Shown here in pieces: positions 2,431 to 57,314 of a DNA stretch of 64,000 bases (its first letter is position 1; each line of letters opens with the position of its first letter). The stretch lies in the NCBI GenBank assembly GCA_020352495.1, contig CP070677.1:2577501-2641500 (forward strand), in the 5' to 3' direction. A program made the translations under genes and the position numbers. The notes below the pieces were generated by a model. It saw nothing but the letters and a program-made list of their open reading frames with translations, did not search any database and was not told where the DNA came from. The stretch comes from Candidatus Latescibacterota bacterium (GTDB taxonomy: Bacteria; Krumholzibacteriota; Krumholzibacteriia; WVZY01).

Positions 2431-3762
2431 GTGAGCACTTTTACACGTTCGACAGTAAAACCCCTAAAGATCGCAAACATGAACACCCGCCACCGGACGC
2501 TGTGGGCGTTGGCCGTGTTCGTCACGGCGGCCATGGTACTGATCCAGTGTGCGTTGCCGACGCAGGCGGCCGACTGGAAGGGTAAGGAAACCACAAAAGA
2601 CGGTATCCGTTGTCTTGTCAGCCCCCGCGAACCAATGGAGCCCCGTATCACGTCCGAACTCGAGGAGCTTTGGCGGATCGGGGGGGACACGGACGACGAG
2701 GACGAGTTCTTTGGCGTCATTCTGCAAATCCTGACGGACGACCACGGGAACGTGTATCTTCTCGATTCGCAACTCAATCAAGTCAAGGTTTTCTCTCCCG
2801 ACGGTGAGTACGTCAGAGAGTTCGGACGCGAGGGCGAGGGTCCAGGCGAGTTCCGGTTCGCGTCGGATATGTTTTTCACCGCCGACGGAAACATCGGAGT
2901 CCTGCAGGCGGCCCCCGGCAAGATCATTCTCTTCACACCCGAGGGTGAGCCGGCCGGTGAACATCCGATTCCAACGCGTGAAGACGGTGGCATGGTGATC
3001 CTATCCAATGGATCTTACAGGGCGGGCAATCTCGTCTTGCTCGCCATGGCGCAGGCCTTCTCAGAGAACCGTTACGAACGAACCGATTACTTGGTTAGCG
3101 TCGATCCCGAAGGCGGCGAAAAAGCCCGTTACCATTCAAGGTCGCGCGTGCTCGATACCGCGAACCCCGTTTTGAGCGAAGGCGAGTGGACACCGTTTTC
3201 CGGCCGCTGGGCGATCGGCGCGGATGGACGCGTATACGTGTGCACGAGCCGCGATGACTACACGATCAAAACCTGGAACCGCGATGGCACACCCGACCGT
3301 ATCATTGAGCGCGAATACACTCACCGCAAAAGGACAGCCGAACAAAAGAAGGTTATCGACGACCTATTTGGAGTATTCGCCAACATGATTCCAAACGGGA
3401 CGTTCGAGACCTCGGATTACGACGGCGATATCGCGGCCATCTATGTTCGCGAGGACGGCAGCCTTTGGGTCCTCACGAGCGACGGGACGCGTGATCTCCC
3501 CGATGGGAGTCTGGGAGTTTTTGATATTTTCGATCAGGAGGGCCGTCTCCTTCGGCAGGTTGCATTGAACGGTGACGGAGATCCGGAAACCGATGGCTAC
3601 TATTTTTCCGGTGACCGTATGTATGTAGTAACGGACTGGCTGCAGGCGCTCATATCGCTCCAATCGGGTGAACAGTCGTTCCAGGTCGGGGACGAGGAGC
3701 CCGAGCCGATGAGCGTGATCTGCTACCAGCTTGCCGCCGATGTTCAGACGTCGCAAAAATAG
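2431..3762 (+). CDS. secreted NHL-like / 6-bladed beta-propeller repeat protein
   Basis: 443 aa. N-terminal signal peptide (TLWALAVFVTAAMVLIQCALPTQA). Repeated '...VYLLDSQLNQVKVFSPDGEYVREFGREGEGPGEF...' NHL-type blades. RBS aaaggag lies upstream. Confidence 0.6.
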   Translation: MSTFTRSTVKPLKIANMNTRHRTLWALAVFVTAAMVLIQCALPTQAADWKGKETTKDGIRCLVSPREPMEPRITSELEELWRIGGDTDDEDEFFGVILQILTDDHGNVYLLDSQLNQVKVFSPDGEYVREFGREGEGPGEFRFASDMFFTADGNIGVLQAAPGKIILFTPEGEPAGEHPIPTREDGGMVILSNGSYRAGNLVLLAMAQAFSENRYERTDYLVSVDPEGGEKARYHSRSRVLDTANPVLSEGEWTPFSGRWAIGADGRVYVCTSRDDYTIKTWNRDGTPDRIIEREYTHRKRTAEQKKVIDDLFGVFANMIPNGTFETSDYDGDIAAIYVREDGSLWVLTSDGTRDLPDGSLGVFDIFDQEGRLLRQVALNGDGDPETDGYYFSGDRMYVVTDWLQALISLQSGEQSFQVGDEEPEPMSVICYQLAADVQTSQK

Positions 3763-14823: not shown

Positions 14824-15382
14824 AACGTTACTCCTCCTTTAGTACAACGCACGTTGTTGAATCACTGCAGCTGGCAACCAGGAGAAGCACGTCACCATCC
14901 CGTGAGCGCAAGAGGGGAAGGAGATCCATGCTCCACTGTTGCTCTCCCATTATATCACAAGCTCGAACTCCCCGTCAATTAAAGAGTTTCGCTTTTGCCT
15001 TGTAGGAAAACCGGAAACAAGGCATACCATCGGGACAAAAACCAACGCCATTATTGTACAACCCAAAGATATCTCGAAGATCTTCCAGTAAATATGGGCA
15101 CAAACGCCGCCACCTTCCCCGTCACCACCGGTATGTCCGTCACTCCGAAAACGGGGAATCGCAATCCATGTTGGGACAGTTGTGGGAATCACTCGATGGT
15201 CCCGGAACTCATGGGCACACAGAAGTCAGGGATACCGCCACGATTGAAATCGTGTCAGGCGGAACCTGCAATGTCATTATGGGAGATGAGAAATTCGTGG
15301 CCACTCGCGGGGAGTAGCCCGGGCAAGTCATCGACATCCGCGTCGACGCTGACGCGCGCACCAGGCGGCACACAGGGATCCG

Positions 15383-18940: not shown

Positions 18941-21900
18941 TTACTTGCAGGGCAAGAACCGAACGGCCGTTTCCATTTCCTCGAGCACCTGTTCGAGCGC
19001 CGACAACGCCTCGTCGATGTCCTGCCCCGTAGTTTTGTGCGACATCGAAAACCTCACCGAACAGTGAGCATCCTCTTCGGATCGTCCCATGGCGATCAAC
19101 ACATGTGTCGGTTTTGGCGATCCCGACTTGCACGCAGACCCCGACGAGATCGAGACTCCGTGCTGATCGAGCGCCACGACCAGCGATTCGCCTCGAAGTC
19201 CCGGGAGAGTCATATTGAGCGTGTTGGGAAGCCTCTTCTCACGATGTCCGTTGAGTATCGCGTCGGGGACGAGTCGTTTGACGCCCTCCTCGAGACGATC
19301 CCTCAACAGTCTCATTTCTCCGGATTTGTTGACGTTTCTTAGCGCAAGCACGGCGGCCTCTCCCATCCCGACGATCGCCGGCACGTTCTCCGTCCCCGCT
19401 CGCAATCCACCCTCCTGCATTCCCCCGTGGAGAAGCGGCTCCAGCTTGATACCCTTTCTCACGTACAGGGCGCCAACACCCTTTGGCCCGTGGAACTTGT
19501 GACCGGAGAGGGTGAGCATATCGACGCCAAGCTCTTCCACGTCGATCTTTATTTTTCCAGCTGCCTGCACGGCATCGGTGTGAAACAACACGCCCTTGGA
19601 GTGAGCGATCCGGCACAACTCCTCGATTGGGAGAATCGTTCCAACTTCGTTATTGGCCATCATGACCGACACGAGAACCGTTCGCTCATTGATCGCCGAC
19701 TCGAGCGTACTCGGATCCAAACAACCCTCTTGATCCACCTCGAGATAGGTCACCTCATGACCGTGTCGCTCCAAAAACCCGCACGTTCCCAACACAGCCG
19801 GATGTTCAACCCGGGTCGTAACAACGTGATTCAGCTGGCCCCGATGAGCGAACGCCACGCCCTTGACCGCCAGATTGTCCGCTTCCGATCCCCCACCGGT
19901 GAACATGATTCTGCGTGGACGCGCGTTTATTAGCTGACCCACCTGTCGCCGCGCCCGATCGATTGCCTCCCTGGCGTCGCGCCCGGCTCCGTGGATGCTC
20001 GATGGGTTCCCGTGTTTTGTCTCCAAATATGGCAGCATCGCTTGCCGAACCTCGTCGGCCAACTCGGTGGTTGCGTTGTTGTCGAGGTATATCCGTGTAG
20101 CAGATTTCTTCCGTTGCCGCTGTCTCCCAACCGGACGTGAGCCGCCTCCCACTTTCGAATGTTCAAATGTTTTCTCTTTCGCCGGTCTTTTCTTTTTGCG
20201 AACCTGCGCACCGCCGCCGAGCTCGTTCACTCTCACGACATCGCAAAGAAGCGCTTTGTACACGGGAAACCCCGTTATCTCGTCGTAGTTGGTGATGTCG
20301 GTGAGCTCGTTGACATTCCGCTCCCGCCACTCCCGGGGCCCAGCGGGCGCCCCTCCACCCATGTTGCATTCGACGGCACCCTCCGTGATATACTCCGTCA
20401 CACGGGCACGAAATTTGACAGCCCCTCGGGGTGTCCGTACCTCGACAAGATCACCGTCTTCGATACCTCGTGATTCGGCGTCAGCGACGTTGATCTCCAC
20501 AAAGGGTTCGGGATTGTCCTTTACAAGACCATCGATCCCGTGATGCTGCGATCGAAAATCGGTATGCAGCCGCGCGCCGGAGTTGAAAACCAGCGGGAAA
20601 TCCGCAGCCAACTCCCTGTCGGCAACTGGTCCCTCGGTGGGCTCGGTGTATTTTGGCAACGGCTCGTATCCATACTCATCGAGAATCATCGAGTGGATTT
20701 CGAACTTGCCCGTTGGCGTATCGAATCCCGGTTTTCCGTCTTTTCGAAGTCTCCCCTTCTCCCATTTCTTGAACTCCATCATTGGTGTGTCGATCTTCAC
20801 CCATCCCCCCGCGTTTTCTACATCCTCGAGCGTATACCCCGAGCCTTCGAGCGCCGTTCGAATCATCTCTTCTTCGGACTGCGGGTAGAGGTGACCGTAC
20901 CCCAACCGGTCGGCCAGCCCCGCCATGATCAAGTAGTCGTTCCGCGCCTCCCCGACCGGCTCAATCAACTTCTCCCTCAAACGAAATAGCGGACCATATA
21001 CCATATATGAATCGATCTCGAACATTGTCGTCGCTGGAAGTACCACATCAGCGTAGCTGGCGTCCGCCGTGAGCTGGCGGTCTATGCAGACAAGATATTC
21101 GAGCCTGGAGAGCGTCTCACGCCAGAGAGGTGTCTGTGGCCATGACGTCATCAGAGACGCCCCGTGAACGATCAAGCCGCGGATGCGATACGGGTCGCTC
21201 TTGAGGACCGAGTCCACGAGTCCACTTGCGTGTGACTCGCCACGATAGTCGCTGTAAACCGGAAATCGTTGACGCGCGACGGCCAGGTCGATGTTTGGGT
21301 TCTTTTGATTACAGTTCCGGTTTATCGGGAAATGGGTACGGAGCATCGCAAGCCCGATCCCCCCGGGAACGTCCAACTGACCGGCGAGCGCAAAGAGTGT
21401 GAGAACAGCACGTATCGCTTGAACGCCGGTGTTGGAATACTCCAACCCCGTATACATAACCGGACAAGCCCCGGTGGCGTTGCAGATTCGGCGAGCCAAC
21501 TCACGCGTCGTGTCGGCCGGCACACCGGTGATCGATTCCACGACCTCGGGTGAGAAGTGTTGAACGTAACTCTTGAGTTCGTCGAAACCGTGACACCAGT
21601 TTTCGGCAAAATCTTCGTCATGGAGGTCCTCATCGATCATGACTTCGATGATCCCAAGAGCGAGCGCACCGTCGGTGCCCGGTCGGATCGGAACCCACTG
21701 CGCCCCCGTTCTTCGTGTCGTCTCACTCATTCGAGGATCGATGACAATGACGTCGGCGCTTCGGTTTGCCGCCGCTTCCAGACGGTGCATGTCGAGAGGT
21801 GGCGAGTCGGTGGCTGGGTTCGCGCCCCACACGACGAGCGTTTCCGCGTTCTCGATGTCTGTGAACATGTCGACGAGCATTCTTCCCATCGTCACATGCG

Positions 21901-35675: not shown

Positions 35676-36111
35676 TACACCCTCCTCTCGGAAATTGAAC
35701 CGGTGACAGGCGCCTCGGGTGTATCTGCGCCTCGCGGGCCAAAATTCAACTTACTGCGAAACCAAACCGCGCTGCTCGACGTTCTTTTTGCTGGTTGTAA
35801 TATCTTTGTTGGATTTGGCTACACGGTGACTTCGATGTACGCTCAGTAATGGAACGTGTTGTGGTTCTCGGCGAAGCCAAACGACGTATTCGCCCCATAA
35901 GAACGCCCCTGACGTCGTGCGTTGCATATTATACCACAAACGGTTGTTGAAATCCACGTCTAACCTCTTCAAAAGCCAAAGCAAACGATACATGCACGAA
36001 TTCTTCCGAGGGCTCTTCCACACCCTCGACCGAACCATTCCGGGCTGGACAACTCCACCACTGGCCGCTATGTTTGAACGAAGTGCAAACGAGGAACCGA
36101 GTGTCGTTACC

Positions 36112-47201: not shown

Positions 47202-48131
47202 CTATCCCACGGAAAAGCTAATCGAGCCGAGTGCCCGTTCGAGCCTTTGGATCTGTTCACGGTCCAGTGGTGAAATTGGTGGCCGGACATTGCGCCAACC
47301 ATCACTTCCAGTGTGTTCCGCCATTACGTGCTTGAGCGCTGCAATCAACGGGAATTCGTCAAATGTCTGTCGGATCAGAGTTAGTCTTTGTTGAAGTTCG
47401 CGGACGTCGTCCGTTTGCCACCGGTTGTGAATCTCCGCAGCCAGACGACTCGTAACATTGATCGTTGCCGAAATGCACCCTGCCCCGCCCATCTCCAAGA
47501 GATCGAGAAGAAAAATCTCCGTCCCGGGAAACACCCGCAGACCGGGAAATGATTGACGGATCATTTTCATATGTCCGAAATCACCACCCGAGTCCTTGAT
47601 TCCCACGATGGTATCGGGATATGCCGTCGTCAGCCTCGAGATCAAATCGCGGTCCAACGGCACCCCGGTCATCTGAGGAAAATGATACAGATACATCTCC
47701 AGACGAGTATCACTCAACTGTTGTACAACTCGGGCATACGCGTCGTAAACACCGTTGTCGTCCACACCCTTGTAATAAAAGGGAGGTAACACGAGGACGC
47801 CACCTACGCCGAGATCCATCGCGTGCCTCGTCAGCAACACCGTATCGGGAAGTGCGCAACACCCCGTTCCCACGAGCAGTCTATTCGCGGGGATTCTATT
47901 TTTAACGAGGGTCTCCAACGCATCCATTCGCTCCTTGGCCGAAAATGACGTCGCCTCCCCAGTCGTTCCAAATACCGCGATACCGTCGCATCCATTACCA
48001 AGAAGCCACCCACAGTGATCCGCCAACGCGACGTGATCGACGGCGAGGTCCTTGGTTTCTGGTGTCAGGGTCGCTGCAAAAATTCCTGTCGGCAGCGTAC
48101 CTCTCTGCCCTTCCTGCTTTTCTACCATCAT
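47202..48131 (-). CDS. dihydrodipicolinate synthase/N-acetylneuraminate lyase family (class I aldolase, DapA-like)
   Basis: GIFAATLTPETKD...GIAVFGTTGEATS...YLYHFPQMTGV are DHDPS-family signatures. 21 nt upstream of the Mo-oxidoreductase on the same strand. Confidence 0.8.
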   Translation of the reverse strand: MMVEKQEGQRGTLPTGIFAATLTPETKDLAVDHVALADHCGWLLGNGCDGIAVFGTTGEATSFSAKERMDALETLVKNRIPANRLLVGTGCCALPDTVLLTRHAMDLGVGGVLVLPPFYYKGVDDNGVYDAYARVVQQLSDTRLEMYLYHFPQMTGVPLDRDLISRLTTAYPDTIVGIKDSGGDFGHMKMIRQSFPGLRVFPGTEIFLLDLLEMGGAGCISATINVTSRLAAEIHNRWQTDDVRELQQRLTLIRQTFDEFPLIAALKHVMAEHTGSDGWRNVRPPISPLDREQIQRLERALGSISFSVG

Positions 48132-49614: not shown

Positions 49615-50033
49615 TGATATTCCTTTCGTGCTATCCCCCAAGCTACCGCAGAGTTCCGGTTCTCAAACGGTCCGACAGCCCTCAAGACCAGACGCACCCG
49701 TTCCCATGAACCCACTGCGCGCAACCGCCCGCGCGTTGCCGTCGAGATTCCGATAGTCTACCACGTCCCGCGCCCCAGCGCCCGTCTCCTCATGGACGGA
49801 AAACCGGCACCGGGCGTCGAGTCACGGGGTCAATAACCGGTTGACAGCCGGTTGCAGGCGACATAACCTATTTGATAGCTGGTGTTTGTTCCTGAACCGA
49901 TACCCTGGTGTGCCGGTATCGGACAGTGACTGTCTAATTCGGTTGACACTGCGGAGTTCGGATTATCCGCTACGCGACCGGGCAAGATCATTTGCCGCAT
50001 GCGAGTGGACGCAATCCGTGGCCCGTGTGTCGG

Positions 50034-52655
50034 ATGTTTCTCACCCCGTCTACCGGGGGGGACGCGGTGATCGGCCAGAAGATATCCCACTATCGTATTA
50101 CCGAGCGCGTAAGCGAGGGTGGAATGGGGACGGTTTACAAGGCGCTCGATCTTACTCTCGAACGTACCGTCGCCGTCAAAGTAATAACCCCCTCCCATCG
50201 AGATCCCCGGATCGCCAATCAACGGTTTATCCGGGAGGCTCAAGCCGTCGCCCGCATCGATCACCCCAATGTTGTCACGTTCTACGACGTCGTCCAAAAA
50301 GGTGACGCCAACTTCCTCGTCATGCAGTTTGTGACCGGGGTATCTCTGCGGGAGAAGCTCCGAGAGGGCCCTCTCGAGATGTCCGAAGCGTTCCAGTTTG
50401 GCTGTGAGATCGCCTCCGGGCTCCAGGCCGCCCACGAGATTGGTGTGGTACACCGGGATATCAAACCTGAGAACGTCATGGTGGATTCGAACGGCCATGC
50501 AAAAGTGCTCGACTTCGGTGTTGCACATCTTGTCGATCGCTCGACACTAACCGGCAAAGGAAGAAGAATAATAGGAACGCTTCCCTACATGGCCCCCGAA
50601 CAGATTCAGGGTCACCCCGTTGATTCGAGGGTCGACGTCTACTCACTCGGTGCGGTGATCTTCGAGATGATCACGGGAAAACTCCCGTTCGAAAGCAAGG
50701 AAGAGGCGGCGCTTTTTTACCAGATTCTCAACGAGGATCCCCCCGCGCTCGCGTCGGTGATACCGGACGTGCCCGACGGTGTTGATGATATCCTCGCAAA
50801 GGCGTTGGCCAAGAGACCCGACCGGAGGTACCAGACCGTCGCCGAAATGCTACACGATCTCGAGGTAGCACGCTCCAAAATCGAGTCTCCCCCGCCTGTC
50901 GGGGAACGGCTCTACGCCCGTTCCAGAAAGCGACGTCGCAGGCTCATTCTAGCCGTTGTCATCCCGATGATACTCTTGGGTATCGCAGCGGTGCTGATCA
51001 CCCGACCCGAGTGGATACCCGGATGGCCTTCGGAACCACCACCCGAGGTGACGACACCGGTGCTCGAGAAAAAACACCTCGCCGTCCTCCCGTTCGCCAA
51101 TGTGGGAGGGGACCCTGCCAACAAGCCACTTTGTGACGGCTTGGTAGAGGTGCTCACCACGATGATAACCGGCATGGAACAGTTTCAAGAGGCCCTGTGG
51201 GTCGTCCCCGCCAGCGAGGTTCGACGTGGAGAAGTCGAGAGTGTTGCCGATGCCCAGGGAACATTTGGTGTGAATCTCGTCATTACGGGGAGCGTACAGC
51301 GGTTCGCCGATGGGATCCGCTTGACGCTCAACCTCGTCGACGCAGTCACTCAAAGACAAATTCGCTCGACGATGATCGAGAGCCGGAGAATCCACGTTTC
51401 GAGCCTTCAAGATGAGACTGTGGTAAAGGTAGCGGAAATGTTGAACGTCGAACTCGAGCCCCAAGATCGCCGACTTCTGACGGCGGGGAGCACGAGGGTG
51501 CCGGGCGCTTACGAATACTACGTCCAGGGATTGGGGTACCTCCAACGCTACGAGACGGCGGGCAACATCGACCACGCGATTCGACTCTTCGAACAGGCCA
51601 TCGCCCACGATACCCGGTACGCCCTTGCCTACGCGGGGTTGGGAGAAGCCGCCTGGCAGATGTACGACCAGACCAAGAATCCGAAATGGGTCGAGAAGGC
51701 CCAGTCGTACTGCAATCAGGCAGCGAGGATAGACGACAATCTGGCCCCGGTCCACGCAACGCTGGGAATCATCCACCGTGGACAGGGGCGCTACGATGAC
51801 GCCGTGCGAGAGTTTCAACGGGCCCTCACAATCGATCCCGCCAATGCCGATGCGTACCGGGGTCTCGCCCTCACATATCAGGAAGGCGGACAACTGGACA
51901 AGGCCGAGTCGACGTATCAGAAGGCGATCGAACTGAGACCCGGATATTGGGGCGGTTACAGTCACCTGGGGTATTTTTATCTTGGAACCGGGGACTTCGA
52001 GAAGGCCGAAACGATGTACAAAAAGGTGATCGAGCTGACACCCGATAACATACGCGGCTACAATATGCTGATCGTCGTCTACTTCTACCTCGGTGACGTG
52101 ATATCGGCAGAGGCGATGTACAAAAAGTCGATCGCCATAAAACCCAGCGCCGTCGCCCATACCAATATGGCTGCCGTTTATATCTATCTCAAACGCTACG
52201 ACGATGCGATACCCGTTCTCGAGGGAGCAACCCAGCTGGGTGTCGAAGACCCAATCATTTGGGGAAATCTTGCCGACGCCTATCGGTATTCATCTGCGAA
52301 CGATGACAAGGCCGTTGAGACATACCGACGGGCGATCCGCTTGTGCGAGGCCCAGCTCGAAGTGAATCCGAACAGTGCCACACAACTCGCATTACAGGCG
52401 CTTTTCTATGCGAAAACGGGGGACATTGAAAAAGCGCTCGAACTGATACGCAAGGCTCTCGATCTCCAGCCCGACGATTGGATGATTTTGATCTGGAAAG
52501 CGATTATCCTCGAGCTCTCCGGCGATCGCGATGCCGCGCTCGACGCTCTCAGAGATGCCCTTGAACACGGAGCTCCTCTCGAAGCCATCGAGGATGAGCC
52601 CGAATTCGAAGATCTTCGCAAGGATCCGCGTTACAAAGAGCTAATCGAACAGTAG
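50034..52655 (+). CDS. serine/threonine protein kinase with TM segment and C-terminal TPR repeats
   Basis: Kinase subdomains (GGMGTVYKA...AVK; HRDIKPENVMV; DFGVA; GTLPYMAPE). TM helix LILAVVIPMILLGIAAVLI. At least 10 TPR repeats at the C-terminus. Confidence 0.85.
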   Translation: MFLTPSTGGDAVIGQKISHYRITERVSEGGMGTVYKALDLTLERTVAVKVITPSHRDPRIANQRFIREAQAVARIDHPNVVTFYDVVQKGDANFLVMQFVTGVSLREKLREGPLEMSEAFQFGCEIASGLQAAHEIGVVHRDIKPENVMVDSNGHAKVLDFGVAHLVDRSTLTGKGRRIIGTLPYMAPEQIQGHPVDSRVDVYSLGAVIFEMITGKLPFESKEEAALFYQILNEDPPALASVIPDVPDGVDDILAKALAKRPDRRYQTVAEMLHDLEVARSKIESPPPVGERLYARSRKRRRRLILAVVIPMILLGIAAVLITRPEWIPGWPSEPPPEVTTPVLEKKHLAVLPFANVGGDPANKPLCDGLVEVLTTMITGMEQFQEALWVVPASEVRRGEVESVADAQGTFGVNLVITGSVQRFADGIRLTLNLVDAVTQRQIRSTMIESRRIHVSSLQDETVVKVAEMLNVELEPQDRRLLTAGSTRVPGAYEYYVQGLGYLQRYETAGNIDHAIRLFEQAIAHDTRYALAYAGLGEAAWQMYDQTKNPKWVEKAQSYCNQAARIDDNLAPVHATLGIIHRGQGRYDDAVREFQRALTIDPANADAYRGLALTYQEGGQLDKAESTYQKAIELRPGYWGGYSHLGYFYLGTGDFEKAETMYKKVIELTPDNIRGYNMLIVVYFYLGDVISAEAMYKKSIAIKPSAVAHTNMAAVYIYLKRYDDAIPVLEGATQLGVEDPIIWGNLADAYRYSSANDDKAVETYRRAIRLCEAQLEVNPNSATQLALQALFYAKTGDIEKALELIRKALDLQPDDWMILIWKAIILELSGDRDAALDALRDALEHGAPLEAIEDEPEFEDLRKDPRYKELIEQ

Positions 52656-52695
52656 GCTTCCCAACACGGCTCTCGATTGCATCCTACTCCGCCAC

Positions 52696-52725
52696 TTGTA
52701 AACTATCCAGTAAATATGATATACT
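52696..52725 (+). promoter_or_regulatory. sigma70-like promoter (TTGTAA -N18- TATACT) for small paralog 1
   Basis: -35 at 52696-52701, -10 at 52720-52725. Followed by a ~120-nt leader conserved with paralog 2. Contains ATGATATACT, the same motif as upstream of padR. Confidence 0.55.
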
Positions 52726-52845
52726 GTGAGCCTCCCAAGGATGTAGGTGCAGCGTAACTACGTCTCAGGAAAAAGCAGGGCCCGCATCAAGGCAACCGCA
52801 GTTAGGTGGGTTATTGGTGAGGTGTCAGCAATAAGGAGGTTGGTC

Positions 52846-53148
52846 ATGTCGGCCGCAGTAAAAGTCGGTTGTGTGAACGGCGATTTCTCTTATTCGGACC
52901 AGCTCTGCGAGCTCAAGAGAGGAGACGTCGTCGAGATCACTTCCGAACAAGGCTACCCTATCGCCGTACATATCGGGTGGAAAACGCCGTTCAACAAGGG
53001 CCGCGACCGTGCCCCGGCGGGTGAGAAAATCGAACTCACAGTCCTAAGCGACGCAATACCCGGCGAATACAAATACCTCGTGGCGGTCTACGAGCCTAAG
53101 AAAGACAAAATCTGGACCGATGACCCGTACTTCATCATCAAACCCTGA
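52846..53148 (+). CDS. small conserved hypothetical protein (100 aa), paralog 1
   Basis: RBS aaggagg 6 nt before ATG. MSAAVKVGCVNGDFSYSDQLC...EQGYPIAVHIGWKTPFNKGRDRA...PGEYKYLVAVYEPKKDKIWTDDPYFIIKP. Confidence 0.6.
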   Translation: MSAAVKVGCVNGDFSYSDQLCELKRGDVVEITSEQGYPIAVHIGWKTPFNKGRDRAPAGEKIELTVLSDAIPGEYKYLVAVYEPKKDKIWTDDPYFIIKP

Positions 53149-53394
53149 GCCGGCCATTATCTCGCTCGTGGCTTGGGATAAAAATCGAGTCATCTCCATT
53201 TGACTCCAAATGCTGAAGGGGCAATAAGGCGTCCGCTCTCGTCGTAATGAGAGACGCTAACGCGTAAGGAGCCCTTTTTGTTACCAAAGACGAGCAGCAG
53301 CCCGAACACATGGATCAGGATCTTCGGTGCGAGGAACTGCCCCCACGGCAGGCCACGTCACGGGCGTCCCATCTCCGCTCCAGACTCACCCCCC

Positions 53395-53424
53395 TTGTGA
53401 GCTATCCACCAAATATGGTATAAT
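53395..53424 (+). promoter_or_regulatory. sigma70-like promoter (TTGTGA -N18- TATAAT) for small paralog 2
   Basis: Position-for-position conserved with the paralog-1 promoter, including the CTATCCA..AAATATG spacer. Conserved leader AGCTCCC...AGGTGCAGCGTA..TACG.CTCA..AAAAG...GTCAGC..AAGGAGGTT.GTCATG. Confidence 0.55.
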
Positions 53425-53536
53425 TTAGCTCCCCTCACGATACAGGTGCAGCGTAGATACGCCTCAAAAAGACCGGATCACACGGCCACCGCCTTACCAG
53501 CGCCGGCGCGAGGCGTCAGCCCAAAGGAGGTTCGTC

Positions 53537-53839
53537 ATGCCCGAAGTGAAGATCAGTTGTGTCGACGGCGATTTTTCCTACTCGGACCAAGCCTGCTACA
53601 TCGAGAGGAAACACAAGACCGTCCAAATCAGGTGCGAACAGGGTTACCCGTTCGCCGTACACATCGGGTGGAACACACCGTTCGAAAAGGGCCGTGATCG
53701 CGCCAAAGGTGGTGAGACGATATACCTCCATCTCAAGAAAGACGCCCTACCCGGCGAATACAAGTACCTTGTGGCGGTCTACGACCCAAAGACAGAAGAG
53801 ATCTGGACTGACGACCCGTATTTCATCATCAAACCCTGA
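53537..53839 (+). CDS. small conserved hypothetical protein (100 aa), paralog 2
   Basis: About 60% identity to paralog 1 (MPEVKISCVDGDFSYSDQAC...EQGYPFAVHIGWNTPFEKGRDRA...PGEYKYLVAVYDPKTEEIWTDDPYFIIKP). RBS aaaggagg. Confidence 0.6.
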   Translation: MPEVKISCVDGDFSYSDQACYIERKHKTVQIRCEQGYPFAVHIGWNTPFEKGRDRAKGGETIYLHLKKDALPGEYKYLVAVYDPKTEEIWTDDPYFIIKP

Positions 53840-53934
53840 CTTGCCGTCTCCCCCCGCAGATACTGGGTAGGCTCTCGTTAGCTCCGAGCCGACCGGTGTT
53901 TGCGTTACTTCCGGTTTGGACAGAAGATTGAGAC

Positions 53935-53990
53935 TTGACATTTTGTTGGAGTTGATATATCATAATGATATATTACCGAATGATATACTT
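53935..53990 (+). promoter_or_regulatory. padR promoter with palindromic/direct-repeat operator-like motifs
   Basis: TTGACA at 53935-53940. Perfect palindrome TGATATATCA (53953-53962). Direct repeats AATGATATATT / AATGATATACT. ATGATATACT abuts the padR start codon. Confidence 0.5.
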
Positions 53991-54563
53991 ATGAAAAGCA
54001 AGACGACCACCAGATACGCGATCCTCGGGCTCTTGAGCATCCAACCGATGTCCGGATACGACATGAAGCAGTTCGTGGATATGGCATTCAAACACTTTTG
54101 GTCCGAGAGCTACGGTCGGCTCTATCCTACGCTACGGCAGCTCGAGACGGAAGGTCTTCTCAAATCGAGGGTGTATCGACAACGCGGTCGACCGGACCGG
54201 CGCGTCCACACGATCACCGACAAAGGACGCCGTGAACTGACCGAGTGGCTCGAACAACCCGCATCGCTGCCCCGTGTCCGAAGCGATCTACTGCTCAAGC
54301 TATTCTTCGGACACAACGTCCCCGTTCCATCCAGTATCGAACAAATCCGCCGGCAACGCGAAGTCCTGGAGACGGTCCTCAAGACCCTACAGTCTTATCG
54401 TCCCGCCGTGGACGAGGGGGGTCTCTCCGGTGATCAGCGTATGTTTTTCCTTCTCACCATCCGAAATGGAGAGCTGGTCAACAAGGCACGAATCAAGTGG
54501 TGTGACGAGGCGATCAAGATCCTGAGCAAACACGTGTCATCGAACGAGGAGACTCCATCATGA
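53991..54563 (+). CDS. PadR family transcriptional regulator
   Basis: Winged-HTH region RYAILGLLSIQPMSGYDMKQFVDMAFKHFWSESYGRLYPTLRQLETEGLL is a PadR signature. ATGA overlap with the downstream hydrolase. Confidence 0.8.
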   Translation: MKSKTTTRYAILGLLSIQPMSGYDMKQFVDMAFKHFWSESYGRLYPTLRQLETEGLLKSRVYRQRGRPDRRVHTITDKGRRELTEWLEQPASLPRVRSDLLLKLFFGHNVPVPSSIEQIRRQREVLETVLKTLQSYRPAVDEGGLSGDQRMFFLLTIRNGELVNKARIKWCDEAIKILSKHVSSNEETPS

Positions 54564-56272
54564 AACTCCGAGCCGCTGGGCGTTGCTCCCGAATATCTGT
54601 TTTCGTCGTCTGTCTTTTGTGTCCGATCGATGCCCCCGGGCAACCGCGGTTCGCGAAGACTGACACCCGCGTCCCCATGTCAGACGGCACCCAGTTGGCG
54701 TCCGACCTCTATCTGCCCGAGAGCGGCGCACCTTTCCCCACGATTGTAATACGAACGCCCTATGGTAAGGACCAAATGAAAGTCTTTGCGGAGTTCTTTG
54801 CCACCAACGGATACGCCGTCGTTGTCCAGGATGTCCGTGGGAAGTGGGCGTCGGAGGGAGAAATCGTCCCCTTTGTCGACGAACAGCAGGACGGTGTCGA
54901 AACGCTCGACTGGATCGTGGAACAAGAATGGAGCAACGGCGACATCGGAATGTGGGGATCGTCATATCTGTCGTACTGCGCCTTGACCGTGGCCGAAGCG
55001 CAACATCCGGCGCTCAAAACGATCTTTAGCAACTCCGGTTGGCTCAACGGTGACAAAATCAACTCGCCCGGAGGCGCCCTCCACTGGATGTTGATGCTCC
55101 CCTGGACATTACACGAAGCTACGCTCAAGACGCGGTCGCTTCAGAACTACGATTTGGACGAGCTTTTCAGACATGTTCCTCTCAAAGATGTGATGGCATC
55201 GGTCGGAATCAACGACCCCGTCTGGGAGAACCCGGATACGCTTTCCGTAATGGACGTGTACGATTGCTCGGACATAAAAATCCCGATCTTTCACCTCACG
55301 GGGTGGTATGATTTTGTGCACCCGTCGGCGCTCTTCGTATACGAGACGGTGAGAGCAGCGACGTCACATCCCCAAAGGCTCCTGGTGGGCCCGTGGGTGC
55401 ACGACCAGCTGTGGACACCCTACACACAGGTCGGTGACCAGGATCTAGGAGACGAATCGGTAATGGGGATCGAACAACTCAACGGTCTCGCCCTTACGTG
55501 GTTCGACCATTGGCTCAAAGGCGCCGGGGACGAAGTGATGACCGAACCACCGATCAAACTGTTTGTGCTCGGCGAAAACAAATGGCACACATTCGAAGAG
55601 TGGCCTCCACGGAACGTCAGTTACGAGCCGTGGTTTCTAACGAGCGGCGGCAATGCAAACACGCGACACGGCGACGGCGAGCTAATCGCCAAACCATCCG
55701 ACGAAACGCCCGGCCTCGACACGTTTGTTTTTGACCCGATGGACCCCGTGCCTACCACGGGCGGCGCAAACTTTCACTTCTTCCCCGACAGGCTTGGCAT
55801 CAGGGACCAACGCGAAGTCGAAGATCGCGATGACGTGCTCGTATACACTTCGGCACCGGTCACAGAGGAGCTCCTCGTCATCGGGCCCGTCACCGCGGTG
55901 ATCCACGTCTCAACCGATGGAAAGGACACCGACTTCACGGCCAAACTCGTCGAGATCCGCGAGGACGGATATGCCGCCAATATCGTCGAAGGAATCATCC
56001 GGGCGAGCTTTCGCAACTCCCGCGATCAGGCGGATCTTTTGGAGCCGGGACGGATCTACGAGCTAAAGATCGATCTTGGCGCAACGGCGTTGGCCATCAA
56101 ACCGAATCATCGAATCCGTCTCGAGATCTCGAGCAGCAATTTCCCAAAATATGACCGAAACCCAAACACGGGGGAGCATCCCTGGACCGCCGTCGAGTAT
56201 AGAGCGGCAAAACAGACCGTTTACCATGGTAGCGAACACCCGTCGCGGGTCGTTCTCCCCGTCGTGAAATGA
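54560..56272 (+). CDS. CocE/NonD family hydrolase (S15 X-Pro dipeptidyl-peptidase-like)
   Basis: Signal peptide. TIVIRTPYGKD...VVVQDVRGKWASEGE...GMWGSSYLSY (Ser nucleophile). C-terminal beta-sandwich domain. Confidence 0.8.
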   Translation: MKLRAAGRCSRISVFVVCLLCPIDAPGQPRFAKTDTRVPMSDGTQLASDLYLPESGAPFPTIVIRTPYGKDQMKVFAEFFATNGYAVVVQDVRGKWASEGEIVPFVDEQQDGVETLDWIVEQEWSNGDIGMWGSSYLSYCALTVAEAQHPALKTIFSNSGWLNGDKINSPGGALHWMLMLPWTLHEATLKTRSLQNYDLDELFRHVPLKDVMASVGINDPVWENPDTLSVMDVYDCSDIKIPIFHLTGWYDFVHPSALFVYETVRAATSHPQRLLVGPWVHDQLWTPYTQVGDQDLGDESVMGIEQLNGLALTWFDHWLKGAGDEVMTEPPIKLFVLGENKWHTFEEWPPRNVSYEPWFLTSGGNANTRHGDGELIAKPSDETPGLDTFVFDPMDPVPTTGGANFHFFPDRLGIRDQREVEDRDDVLVYTSAPVTEELLVIGPVTAVIHVSTDGKDTDFTAKLVEIREDGYAANIVEGIIRASFRNSRDQADLLEPGRIYELKIDLGATALAIKPNHRIRLEISSSNFPKYDRNPNTGEHPWTAVEYRAAKQTVYHGSEHPSRVVLPVVK

Positions 56273-56318
56273 CGGGATTGACCCACGGGAACAAAGTCGA
56301 AATTTCGCACAAAAGGAG

Positions 56319-57314
56319 GTGCGTCGAATGAATCCGAACCGACTCATGGGGTTACTTATTGTTGTCACCGTTGTTGCGATGTCTCTCTCGTGTGCCAAAC
56401 GTCCCACAATCGGCCCGCTGGAGAGAGGAATCGAGCATTTCGAGAACCAAGACTACGCAGCCGCCAAAGAGGCGTTCGATCTCGCGTTCGAACAGGAGCC
56501 CGAGAACCCGGCGATACCGTACTACCTCGGCCAGATCGCCCTCCGAGATGGTGACAACGACAAGGCGATCGAGCTTCTCGAGAAGGCCGTTTCGATGGAC
56601 GAGACGAACCCTGGTTATCACCTCGTTTTGGGACAGGCGTACGTACAGAAACTGCAAACGGTCACGATGTTCGAAAAGGCCACATTTGCCGCCAAGGTCA
56701 AAGGAGAGTTTGAGAAAGCTGTCGAGGTGGATCCCGAACATGTGGGTGCCCGGGTGGCCCTCGCGAGCTTTTATCTACAGGCGCCCCCGATCGCGGGTGG
56801 TAGTGTCAAAAAAGCCAAGGAACACGCCGAAGTGATAAAAAACCTCGATCCCACACAGGGGCACGGATTCATGGCTCAAATATATGTGAAAGAGAAAGAC
56901 TACGCCGCAGCGGAAATAGAGTACGAGGCGCTTGTGGCGCTTTCACCGGATGATCCCGATATCCACTATCAACTCGGTATGCTCCATCAATCGACCGAGG
57001 ATTTCGACAAGGCTTTTGCCGCATTCGAGAAAGCCCTCTCCCTCGACCCGGACCACACCGCCTCGCTATACCAGATGGGACGCACGGGTGTGTTCTCCGG
57101 CGAGAACCTCGAACGGTGCATCGAGTGCATGAAGACCTATTTGGGGAAAGAACTGCACCCGGGCAACCCCTCCAAGGCCGCGGCGCATTGGCGGCTTGGG
57201 ATGTTGTACGAAAAGATGGGAGACAAAGACCTCGCCAGGAAAGAATACGAGACGGCGCTCGAGTTAGAACCCGAAAACGAGGAGGCAAAGAAGTCACTCG
57301 AAGCCCTCGAGTGA
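56319..57314 (+). CDS. TPR-repeat lipoprotein
   Basis: Signal peptide plus lipobox MSLSCAK. Multiple TPR motifs (AIPYYLGQIALRDGDNDKAIELLEKAV...). Confidence 0.75.
   Translation: MRRMNPNRLMGLLIVVTVVAMSLSCAKRPTIGPLERGIEHFENQDYAAAKEAFDLAFEQEPENPAIPYYLGQIALRDGDNDKAIELLEKAVSMDETNPGYHLVLGQAYVQKLQTVTMFEKATFAAKVKGEFEKAVEVDPEHVGARVALASFYLQAPPIAGGSVKKAKEHAEVIKNLDPTQGHGFMAQIYVKEKDYAAAEIEYEALVALSPDDPDIHYQLGMLHQSTEDFDKAFAAFEKALSLDPDHTASLYQMGRTGVFSGENLERCIECMKTYLGKELHPGNPSKAAAHWRLGMLYEKMGDKDLARKEYETALELEPENEEAKKSLEALE

Follow-up and report, generated by a model that had tools for sequence, protein, structure and literature searches.

In a 64,000-nt stretch of contig CP070677.1 from a Candidatus Latescibacterota genome (the whole stretch is termed the window in the following), two similar genes of 100 codons each lie in tandem on the forward strand, copy 1 at 52846..53148 (JSW58_11005) and copy 2 at 53537..53839 (JSW58_11010). 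A direct-repeat scan, which yielded spacings of 688-699, revealed that they are parts of a unit of about 690-700 bp that is present twice. All features that an initial annotation of this region had listed were found in the sequence at their places, with small corrections. The two 100-aa paralogs are real, and their protein identity had to be corrected from about 60% to 69% (67 of 97 positions, BLASTP, E 2e-50), while the coding sequences were 75% identical on the nucleotide level. A codon-wise comparison resulted in 0.84 synonymous (dS) and 0.21 nonsynonymous (dN) substitutions per site. The ratio of 0.25, compared with about 1 for open reading frames (ORFs) lacking a coding signature, showed that both ORFs are real genes under purifying selection and that the duplication is old. 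Between the copies, 18 of 30 fourfold degenerate sites and 44 of 68 third positions of conserved codons were identical.

Both genes are preceded by promoters of the same architecture, which were confirmed as initially annotated. The copy 1 promoter (52696-52725, +) consists of the -35 element TTGTAA, an 18-nt spacer and the extended -10 element TGaTATACT, and the copy 2 promoter (53395-53424, +) of TTGTGA, a spacer of the same length and TGgTATAAT. The two spacers are identical at 14 of 18 positions, counted by hand from the alignment. The leader of copy 1 (52732..52845, +) has a length of about 114 nt from the inferred start, that of copy 2 (53431..53536, +) of about 106 nt. They contain a conserved core at 52745-52767 and 53444-53466, respectively, and a strong ribosome binding site (RBS), AAGGAGG, at 52833-52839 and 53524-53530, in both cases 6 nt upstream of the ATG. 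Copy 1 is followed by a terminator-like compound hairpin and the tract UUUUUGUU (about 53216-53283, +; -47.1 kcal/mol, z = -2.0), in agreement with the hairpin plus T-tract of the initial annotation; a simple terminator scanner passed over it. The hairpin after copy 2 (53855..53904, +; z = -2.0) has a T-poor tail and is therefore a weak candidate for a terminator. The unit would comprise the sigma-70-type promoter with extended -10 element, the leader (about 110 nt), the strong RBS, the gene of 100 codons and the terminator-like hairpin. The explanation that is favored below with moderate confidence includes a tandem duplication of this complete expression unit of about 695 bp as a lineage-specific event.

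The small protein and its kinase neighbor

No Pfam or NCBIfam model matched the small protein, and the view that it belongs to no recognized family was upheld. In a word-indexed search of 5.8 billion proteins with a single sequence, the two paralogs were the sole hits; they stem from a metagenome-assembled genome (MAG) of Candidatus Latescibacterota. An exhaustive HMMER scan of 1.84 billion representatives yielded 83 clusters with E < 1e-3, nearly all with lengths of 97-120 aa and the majority of about 100-115 aa. Structure prediction with AlphaFold2, which the initial annotation had recommended, resulted in a confident all-beta model when an alignment of 21 sequences was used (predicted local distance difference test, pLDDT, 95.8; predicted template modeling score 0.85). 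A model from a 2-sequence alignment was poor (pLDDT 64) and was set aside. The confident model has a cupredoxin fold, and neither this fold nor the kinase partnership described below had been recognized in the initial annotation. Among the top 50 Foldseek matches listed from the PDB nearly all were cupredoxins; the best match was pseudoazurin (3paz, E 1.4e-5), followed by plastocyanin and amicyanin, with template modeling scores of 0.55-0.63. A profile of 52 family members matched plastocyanin 3cvb with E 1.2e-4 and amicyanins with E about 2e-3, and single sequences of the small protein stayed below the threshold of TIGR02656 (E 0.18).

In the HMMER alignment the N-terminal ligand His of plastocyanin is replaced by Phe39, which is conserved in the family, and the ligand Cys by Val79, and the C-terminal loop with the His/Met ligands lies beyond the aligned part. 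The C-terminal part of the family contains no conserved Cys, His or Met, and the motif WTDDP is conserved there. Topology and sequence suggest that this invariant W-T-D-D-P turn replaces the copper ligand loop. Each of the two window copies contains only one His. Because the His and Cys ligands are replaced and the ligand loop is gone, the small protein is predicted to be a plastocyanin relative that is unable to form a type-1 copper site. Invariant or nearly invariant residues of the family are P48, D93, P94, Y77 and I97. Of 52 sequences, 51 have Ser or Thr at position 47 and 41 have Thr at position 91. An N-terminal hydrophobic segment or signal peptide is present in neither window copy; a signal or anchor at the N-terminus was seen in 10 of 96 homologs. 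Two close relatives, encoded at 2655-3086 of the retrieved locus L004 and at 232-624 of L007, differ in this respect: the hydrophobic signal or anchor is found in protein P0092 and not in P0091. The subcellular location would accordingly vary within the family.

Upstream of copy 1 and on the same strand lies a gene for a receptor-type Hanks Ser/Thr kinase (49992..52655, +), which ends at 52655, while copy 1 starts at 52846. The protein of 887 aa is composed of a kinase domain (Pkinase, 1.2e-54), one transmembrane helix, a weak TolB_N-like region (E 0.006) and TPR repeats, to which many TPR families matched. The translation shows the transmembrane segment LILAVVIPMILLGIAAVLI as well as the HRD and DFG motifs of an intact kinase, and the true start is probably about 14-25 codons past the first possible one. 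To compare this arrangement with other genomes, loci were retrieved with a 13-sequence alignment as query (labels such as L001 denote these loci); 16 were from species-representative genomes, 44 from metagenomes, and others from an exact protein look-up, and every protein of the window was compared with them. They stem from Aminicenantes/Aminicenantia, Neomarinimicrobiota, Gemmatimonadales and unclassified MAGs. Forty distinct loci had more than 600 nt of upstream DNA, and in 37 of them the small gene was situated directly downstream of a kinase ortholog on the same strand. The orthologs were full length and had 35-49% identity to the kinase of the window. Two MAGs each contained two pairs of kinase and small gene (L013 and L023; L009 and L014), which shows that both genes are duplicated together. 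Among 18 loci with sufficient DNA downstream, at least 9 harbored, immediately downstream of the small gene, a convergent gene for an FHA-GAF-SpoIIE (PP2C) phosphatase of 558-564 aa (on the minus strand, e.g., L001 5352-7028, L012 2593-4287, L013 6558-8234). An independent tandem duplicate of the small gene was observed on a metagenome contig (L035, 1225-1527 and 1672-2067), the second copy of which is more diverged and encodes 131 aa.

Judged from gene order, the small protein appears to belong to a Ser/Thr phospho-signaling neighborhood. The small gene is the conserved downstream neighbor of the receptor-type kinase in Latescibacterota, Aminicenantes, Neomarinimicrobiota and other uncultured lineages, and its product, a plastocyanin-like protein with neither a type-1 copper site nor a signal peptide, might work with the kinase as substrate, modulator or co-sensor. 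In the present genome the two strong promoters of its own would lead to a much higher level of the small protein than of the kinase. Full-text literature searches for a pairing of kinase and cupredoxin yielded nothing relevant.

Leaders of the small genes

A sliding comparison of the two copies revealed that similarity in the non-coding DNA is confined to distinct blocks. In windows of 20 nt, 15-17 positions were identical in the promoter block, 14-16 in the early leader (52733-52772) and 15 in the RBS region, while about 45 nt of the mid-leader had random-level identity (4-8 of 20) and an indel. The initial annotation had taken the conservation as a sign of selection on non-coding sequence; this holds for the promoter, the RBS region and one early-leader block, all above the neutral level, and does not hold for the mid-leader. 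For promoter and RBS the conservation has obvious, ordinary explanations. The early-leader block is the one real conserved item that they do not explain; it is probably functional, with moderate support from n = 2 sequences. Its core, AGGTGCAGCGTANNTACGNCTCA, was found exactly at 52745-52767 and 53444-53466 and at no third site within the window. Between the copies 20 of its 23 nt are identical, and it contains the DNA dyad GCGTA-NN-TACG(C/T). At a neutral identity of about 0.5, as derived from dS, the probability of at least 20 of 23 matches anywhere in a 110-nt leader is P = 0.007. Promoter, RBS region and this block would be what selection has retained since the duplication (dS about 0.84), and the block of about 25-30 nt, roughly from +14 to +45, is a putative regulator binding site, either a DNA operator or a short RNA site.

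The core might also have no function of its own and represent residual similarity from the duplication, or a short patch of gene conversion, beside a promoter and an RBS under ordinary constraint. There are only two sequences, no structure, homolog or second occurrence of the core was found, and if the neutral identity is 0.6-0.65, as the fourfold sites and third positions given above indicate, P rises to 0.10-0.27. The dS-implied identity of about 0.5 argues in the opposite direction, and the decay of the adjacent 45 nt to random level, including an indel, shows that the local neutral level is low. In addition, the longest identical run in the leaders is 12 nt, and no tract suggests a recent conversion. 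Weighing these points, a functionless core is regarded as improbable. Gene conversion as the origin of the conserved blocks in general was ruled out by the absence of long identical tracts. An upstream ORF or an N-terminal extension starting from a GTG in the core was also discarded; the reading frame of this GTG agrees with that of the gene in copy 1 but not in copy 2.

The initial annotation had proposed a riboswitch-like leader. In a broader form, this reading holds that the leader is a structured cis-regulatory RNA, i.e. a riboswitch, a thermometer, a leader targeted by a protein or small RNA (sRNA), or a 5' stabilizer, which controls translation or stability of the small-gene mRNA. The leader blocks above the neutral level would fit such a role, and so would a consensus fold of the two leaders. 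In this fold the core forms a mini-hairpin of 4 bp (GCGU-N4-ACG[U/C]). A hairpin of 6 bp lies just upstream of the RBS, where two neighboring pairs are changed in a compensatory manner (UU:AA to GG:CC), and 5' CCUCC might pair with GGAGG. However, this fold is weak (-6.9 kcal/mol), and the three pairs changed on both sides were seen in two sequences only. A larger hairpin around the core of copy 1 is not retained in copy 2. With Rfam 15 no match above E = 1 was obtained for 52000-55000, and the whole window had no match that reached the gathering thresholds. Folding of the leaders did not exceed that of dinucleotide shuffles (z = -0.88 for copy 1 and +0.28 for copy 2). For either copy, and with each of three assumed start sites, the energy required to open the RBS fell within the range of the shuffles, and an RBS-sequestering leader was therefore rejected. 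The leader sequence was absent from 67 related loci (nhmmer), and the core had 0 matches in metagenome contigs. Measured against the refuting condition that the initial annotation had named, conservation of this leader does not extend to homologous loci. Together these results speak against the riboswitch, and a structured cis-regulatory RNA of any of the kinds listed is considered rather unlikely. An operator just past the start site, or a short RNA site bound by a protein or sRNA, fits the two leader sequences better.

A further point in favor of a leader RNA comes from other phyla. In most other loci a hairpin, CCGACCUUUAUC...GAUAAAGG, abuts a purine-rich RBS, AAGGGAAAGGAGG, directly upstream of the small gene. 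It is found in Aminicenantes-type loci, e.g. at L008 5904-5958, L011 5947-6003 and L023 3174-3228, and in about 30 further loci. A covariance model built from 9 loci (R1) recovered the held-out locus L001 (E 4.6e-6) and about 28 metagenome loci. Across 32 distinct sequences 87% of the cells were paired and compensatory changes occurred in 10 of 15 pairs; none of 500 shuffles reached any of these measures, and slid registers had 33-56% pairing. No Rfam family matched this hairpin. The tandem duplicates of L035 each have their own R1 hairpin, with identical covariance-model scores. A leader element is therefore regarded as a family trait. In the window the sole R1 match (E 7.7 at 47758) is unrelated, and the possibility that the window leader is a diverged R1 hairpin was ruled out by the covariance model search and nhmmer.

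The R1 hairpin may be a 5' stabilizer of the mRNA, or a processing or translation element between kinase and small gene. It resembles the window leaders in belonging to the same gene family, in its position directly upstream of a strong RBS and, in L035, in being duplicated with the gene. In contrast, the window leaders are longer, are situated behind a dedicated promoter and have no sequence in common with it. The leader version of the window is thus lineage-specific, and a dedicated leader beside a strong RBS is a recurrent trait of the gene family. Three further observations were made in these loci. The motif CAAAnCAAAATATAGnnAAC is common to L008, L011 and L023, in the first ~30 nt after the kinase stop codon; in L011 about 400 nt are inserted between motif and hairpin; and L033 1-700 looks like an inverted-repeat assembly chimera, in which a truncated small-gene start and leader hairpin on the minus strand run into the small gene on the plus strand.

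The padR operon and the extended -10 element

Downstream of copy 2 an operon of three genes (53991..57314, +) is found, which is separate from the small-gene unit. It contains padR (53991-54563, +; PadR and Vir_act_alpha_C domains), a gene for a CocE/NonD S15 hydrolase (54560-56272, +), the start of which overlaps padR by ATGA (54560-54563), in accordance with the translational coupling annotated before, and a gene for a TPR protein of 331 aa (56319-57314, +). The promoter/operator region (53935..53989, +) lies outside the small-gene unit and comprises the -35 element TTGACA and two operators, O1 (53956-53972), a perfect dyad, and O2 (53971-53987), with 2 mismatches. The palindrome TGATATATCA noted initially is indeed present and was revealed to be part of a larger, perfect 19-bp palindrome, ATATATCATAATGATATAT (53955-53973), in which O1 is contained. 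The closest PadR homologs (51-58% identity) are encoded in the same three-gene operon. In four such loci (L068-L071) padR is followed by the S15 CocE/NonD hydrolase gene with overlapping start and by a gene for a TPR protein of about 325 aa, with 50-65% amino acid identity to the proteins of the window, and the genes upstream of padR are unrelated. All five padR promoters, that of the window and the four orthologous ones, share TTGACA, then ATATATC-N5-GATATAT, which overlies the -10 element, and then TGATATA, which is separated from the ATG by 2-3 nt. A padR transcript would be nearly leaderless and would lack an RBS. Such a promoter layout is to be expected of a PadR that controls its own gene, and PadR presumably autoregulates the padR-hydrolase-TPR operon through the ATATATC-N5-GATATAT operators.

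It had been suggested that PadR represses its own and both paralog promoters as one regulon, via the common motif ATGATATAC. The sequence ATGATATACT indeed occurs exactly at 52716 in the copy 1 promoter and at 53980 in the padR promoter, and with up to one mismatch 6 sites were found in the window, compared with 0.9 expected. Moreover, the spacers of the paralog promoters are unusually conserved (14/18), and the lone third half-site TGATATA beside the ATG is kept in all five padR promoters, so that single half-sites may matter to PadR. However, the motif coincides with the extended -10 consensus TGnTATAnT, of which the window contains 8 sites compared with 1.3 expected. These include unrelated promoters, and the 10-mer common to copy 1 and padR is therefore the extended -10 element of this genome. 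The half-site GATATAT resembles the -10 consensus by chance. The copy 2 version, ATGGTATAAT, is a better match to the -10 consensus and a worse match to the PadR half-site. The dyad ATATATC-N5-GATATAT is present in neither paralog promoter with up to 3 mismatches; its shortened form TATATC-N5-GATATA was found under the same limit at 53956 and 53971 and not in 52690-52730 or 53390-53430. Characterized PadR proteins require inverted repeats, and an autoregulating PadR binds them in its own promoter (PMC5050560). The gene neighborhoods point in the same direction. The padR-hydrolase-TPR operon is self-contained elsewhere, and its four loci contain no ortholog of the small gene or the kinase (the kinase query gave weak TPR-repeat matches to the TPR gene of the operon). 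Conversely, no padR or hydrolase gene was found in 67 small-gene loci, and about 50 loci outside the window contain the small gene without padR. A common regulon of the three promoters is therefore judged to be very unlikely, and the adjacency of padR to the small genes is probably incidental.

Further TGnTATAnT sites were observed in the window. One, TGATATACT, is located at 20386. Another, at 14949-14957 on the minus strand, belongs to a textbook extended -10 promoter, TTGACG-17-TGATATAAT, from which a leader of about 125 nt with the RBS AAAGGAGG extends to about 14823; the product of the gene behind it begins with MKKVVYLAVAML, which is signal peptide-like. Strong promoters followed by long leaders may be frequent in this genome. 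A third, the perfect extended -10 element TGGTATAAT at 35928-35936 on the minus strand, has no obvious ORF start nearby downstream and is followed by hairpin-prone sequence without an Rfam match; this element may be a small non-coding RNA.

Interpretation and comparison with known systems

Taken together, the best explanation of the locus combines a duplicated expression unit, a cupredoxin relative that lost its copper site, a kinase as conserved neighbor, a binding site in the early leader and a separate PadR operon, and this combination is favored with moderate confidence. Several points weigh against it. The leader core is seen in two sequences only, its conservation has a probability of P = 0.10 if the neutral identity is 0.6, and both the length of the leader and the distance of its core from +1 are estimated from an inferred start. 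The functional partnership of small protein and kinase is one that we infer, and no ortholog of the FHA-GAF-PP2C phosphatase was found in the window. No Thr is invariant across the 52 sequences of the family, and a simple role as an FHA-recognized phospho-Thr substrate is therefore not obvious. Finally, because 10 of 96 homologs have a signal or anchor, the localization of the protein relative to the two faces of the kinase is ambiguous.

A more far-reaching, tentative idea is that the copper-less cupredoxin and the kinase with its transmembrane helix, TolB_N-like region and TPR repeats might form an undescribed signaling module in Latescibacterota, Aminicenantes, Neomarinimicrobiota and relatives, in many lineages together with the convergent phosphatase. 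The small protein could be its dedicated substrate, stoichiometric modulator or co-sensor, the dosage of which might be set by leader elements, i.e. the R1 hairpin in most lineages and the duplicated promoter together with the early-leader operator or RNA site in the present genome. What is new is the unannotated protein family and its linkage with the kinase and, incidentally, the leader hairpin of the related loci; it is not a riboswitch. Uncultured phyla are rich in bacterial Hanks-type kinases that have periplasmic TPR sensor domains, and to our knowledge the substrate or signal has been identified for almost none of them. The small protein accompanies one such kinase lineage across phyla, which makes it a concrete candidate for the partner that is missing. 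That the pair duplicates together and is often bracketed by the FHA-PP2C phosphatase gene makes the pathway testable. The family is also a further example of a cupredoxin fold that serves a new purpose without copper, and the related loci reveal a conserved leader hairpin that had not been annotated. As to the window itself, part of the outcome is negative, in that the PadR link was a look-alike of the promoter consensus and the leader is no recognizable riboswitch.

Several groups of known systems are instructive for comparison. The padR gene of the window resembles the autoregulated operons of LmrR, cdPadR1 and bcPadR1 (PMC5050560, PMC4534193, PMC3506622) in having an AT-rich inverted-repeat operator over its own promoter and in forming one operon with a putative effector-related enzyme; this likeness concerns the neighboring operon and not the duplicated genes.

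With the type-1 blue copper proteins plastocyanin, pseudoazurin and amicyanin the small protein shares the size of about 100 aa and a Greek-key beta-sandwich, and with plastocyanin also the motifs GDT(I/V)xW and GxYxY. In contrast to them, the window copies and most members of the family have no signal peptide, and the genomic partner is a Ser/Thr kinase instead of a redox enzyme. Cupredoxin-like folds without copper are used for protein-protein recognition by ephrins, which are ligands of receptor kinases, and by phytocyanin-type proteins. The small protein shares with them the copper-less fold, which is meant as an analogy and not as a claim of homology; unlike ephrins, the window copies have no export signal, so that a role as periplasmic ligand is doubtful here.

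Bacterial Hanks-type kinase modules can have adjacent partner genes, e.g. for a PP2C phosphatase and small FHA substrates. The small partner described here has a cupredoxin fold instead of an FHA domain, and none of its phospho-acceptor residues is invariant; the tight and recurrent linkage of a kinase, a small protein and an FHA-containing PP2C phosphatase is a feature shared with such modules.

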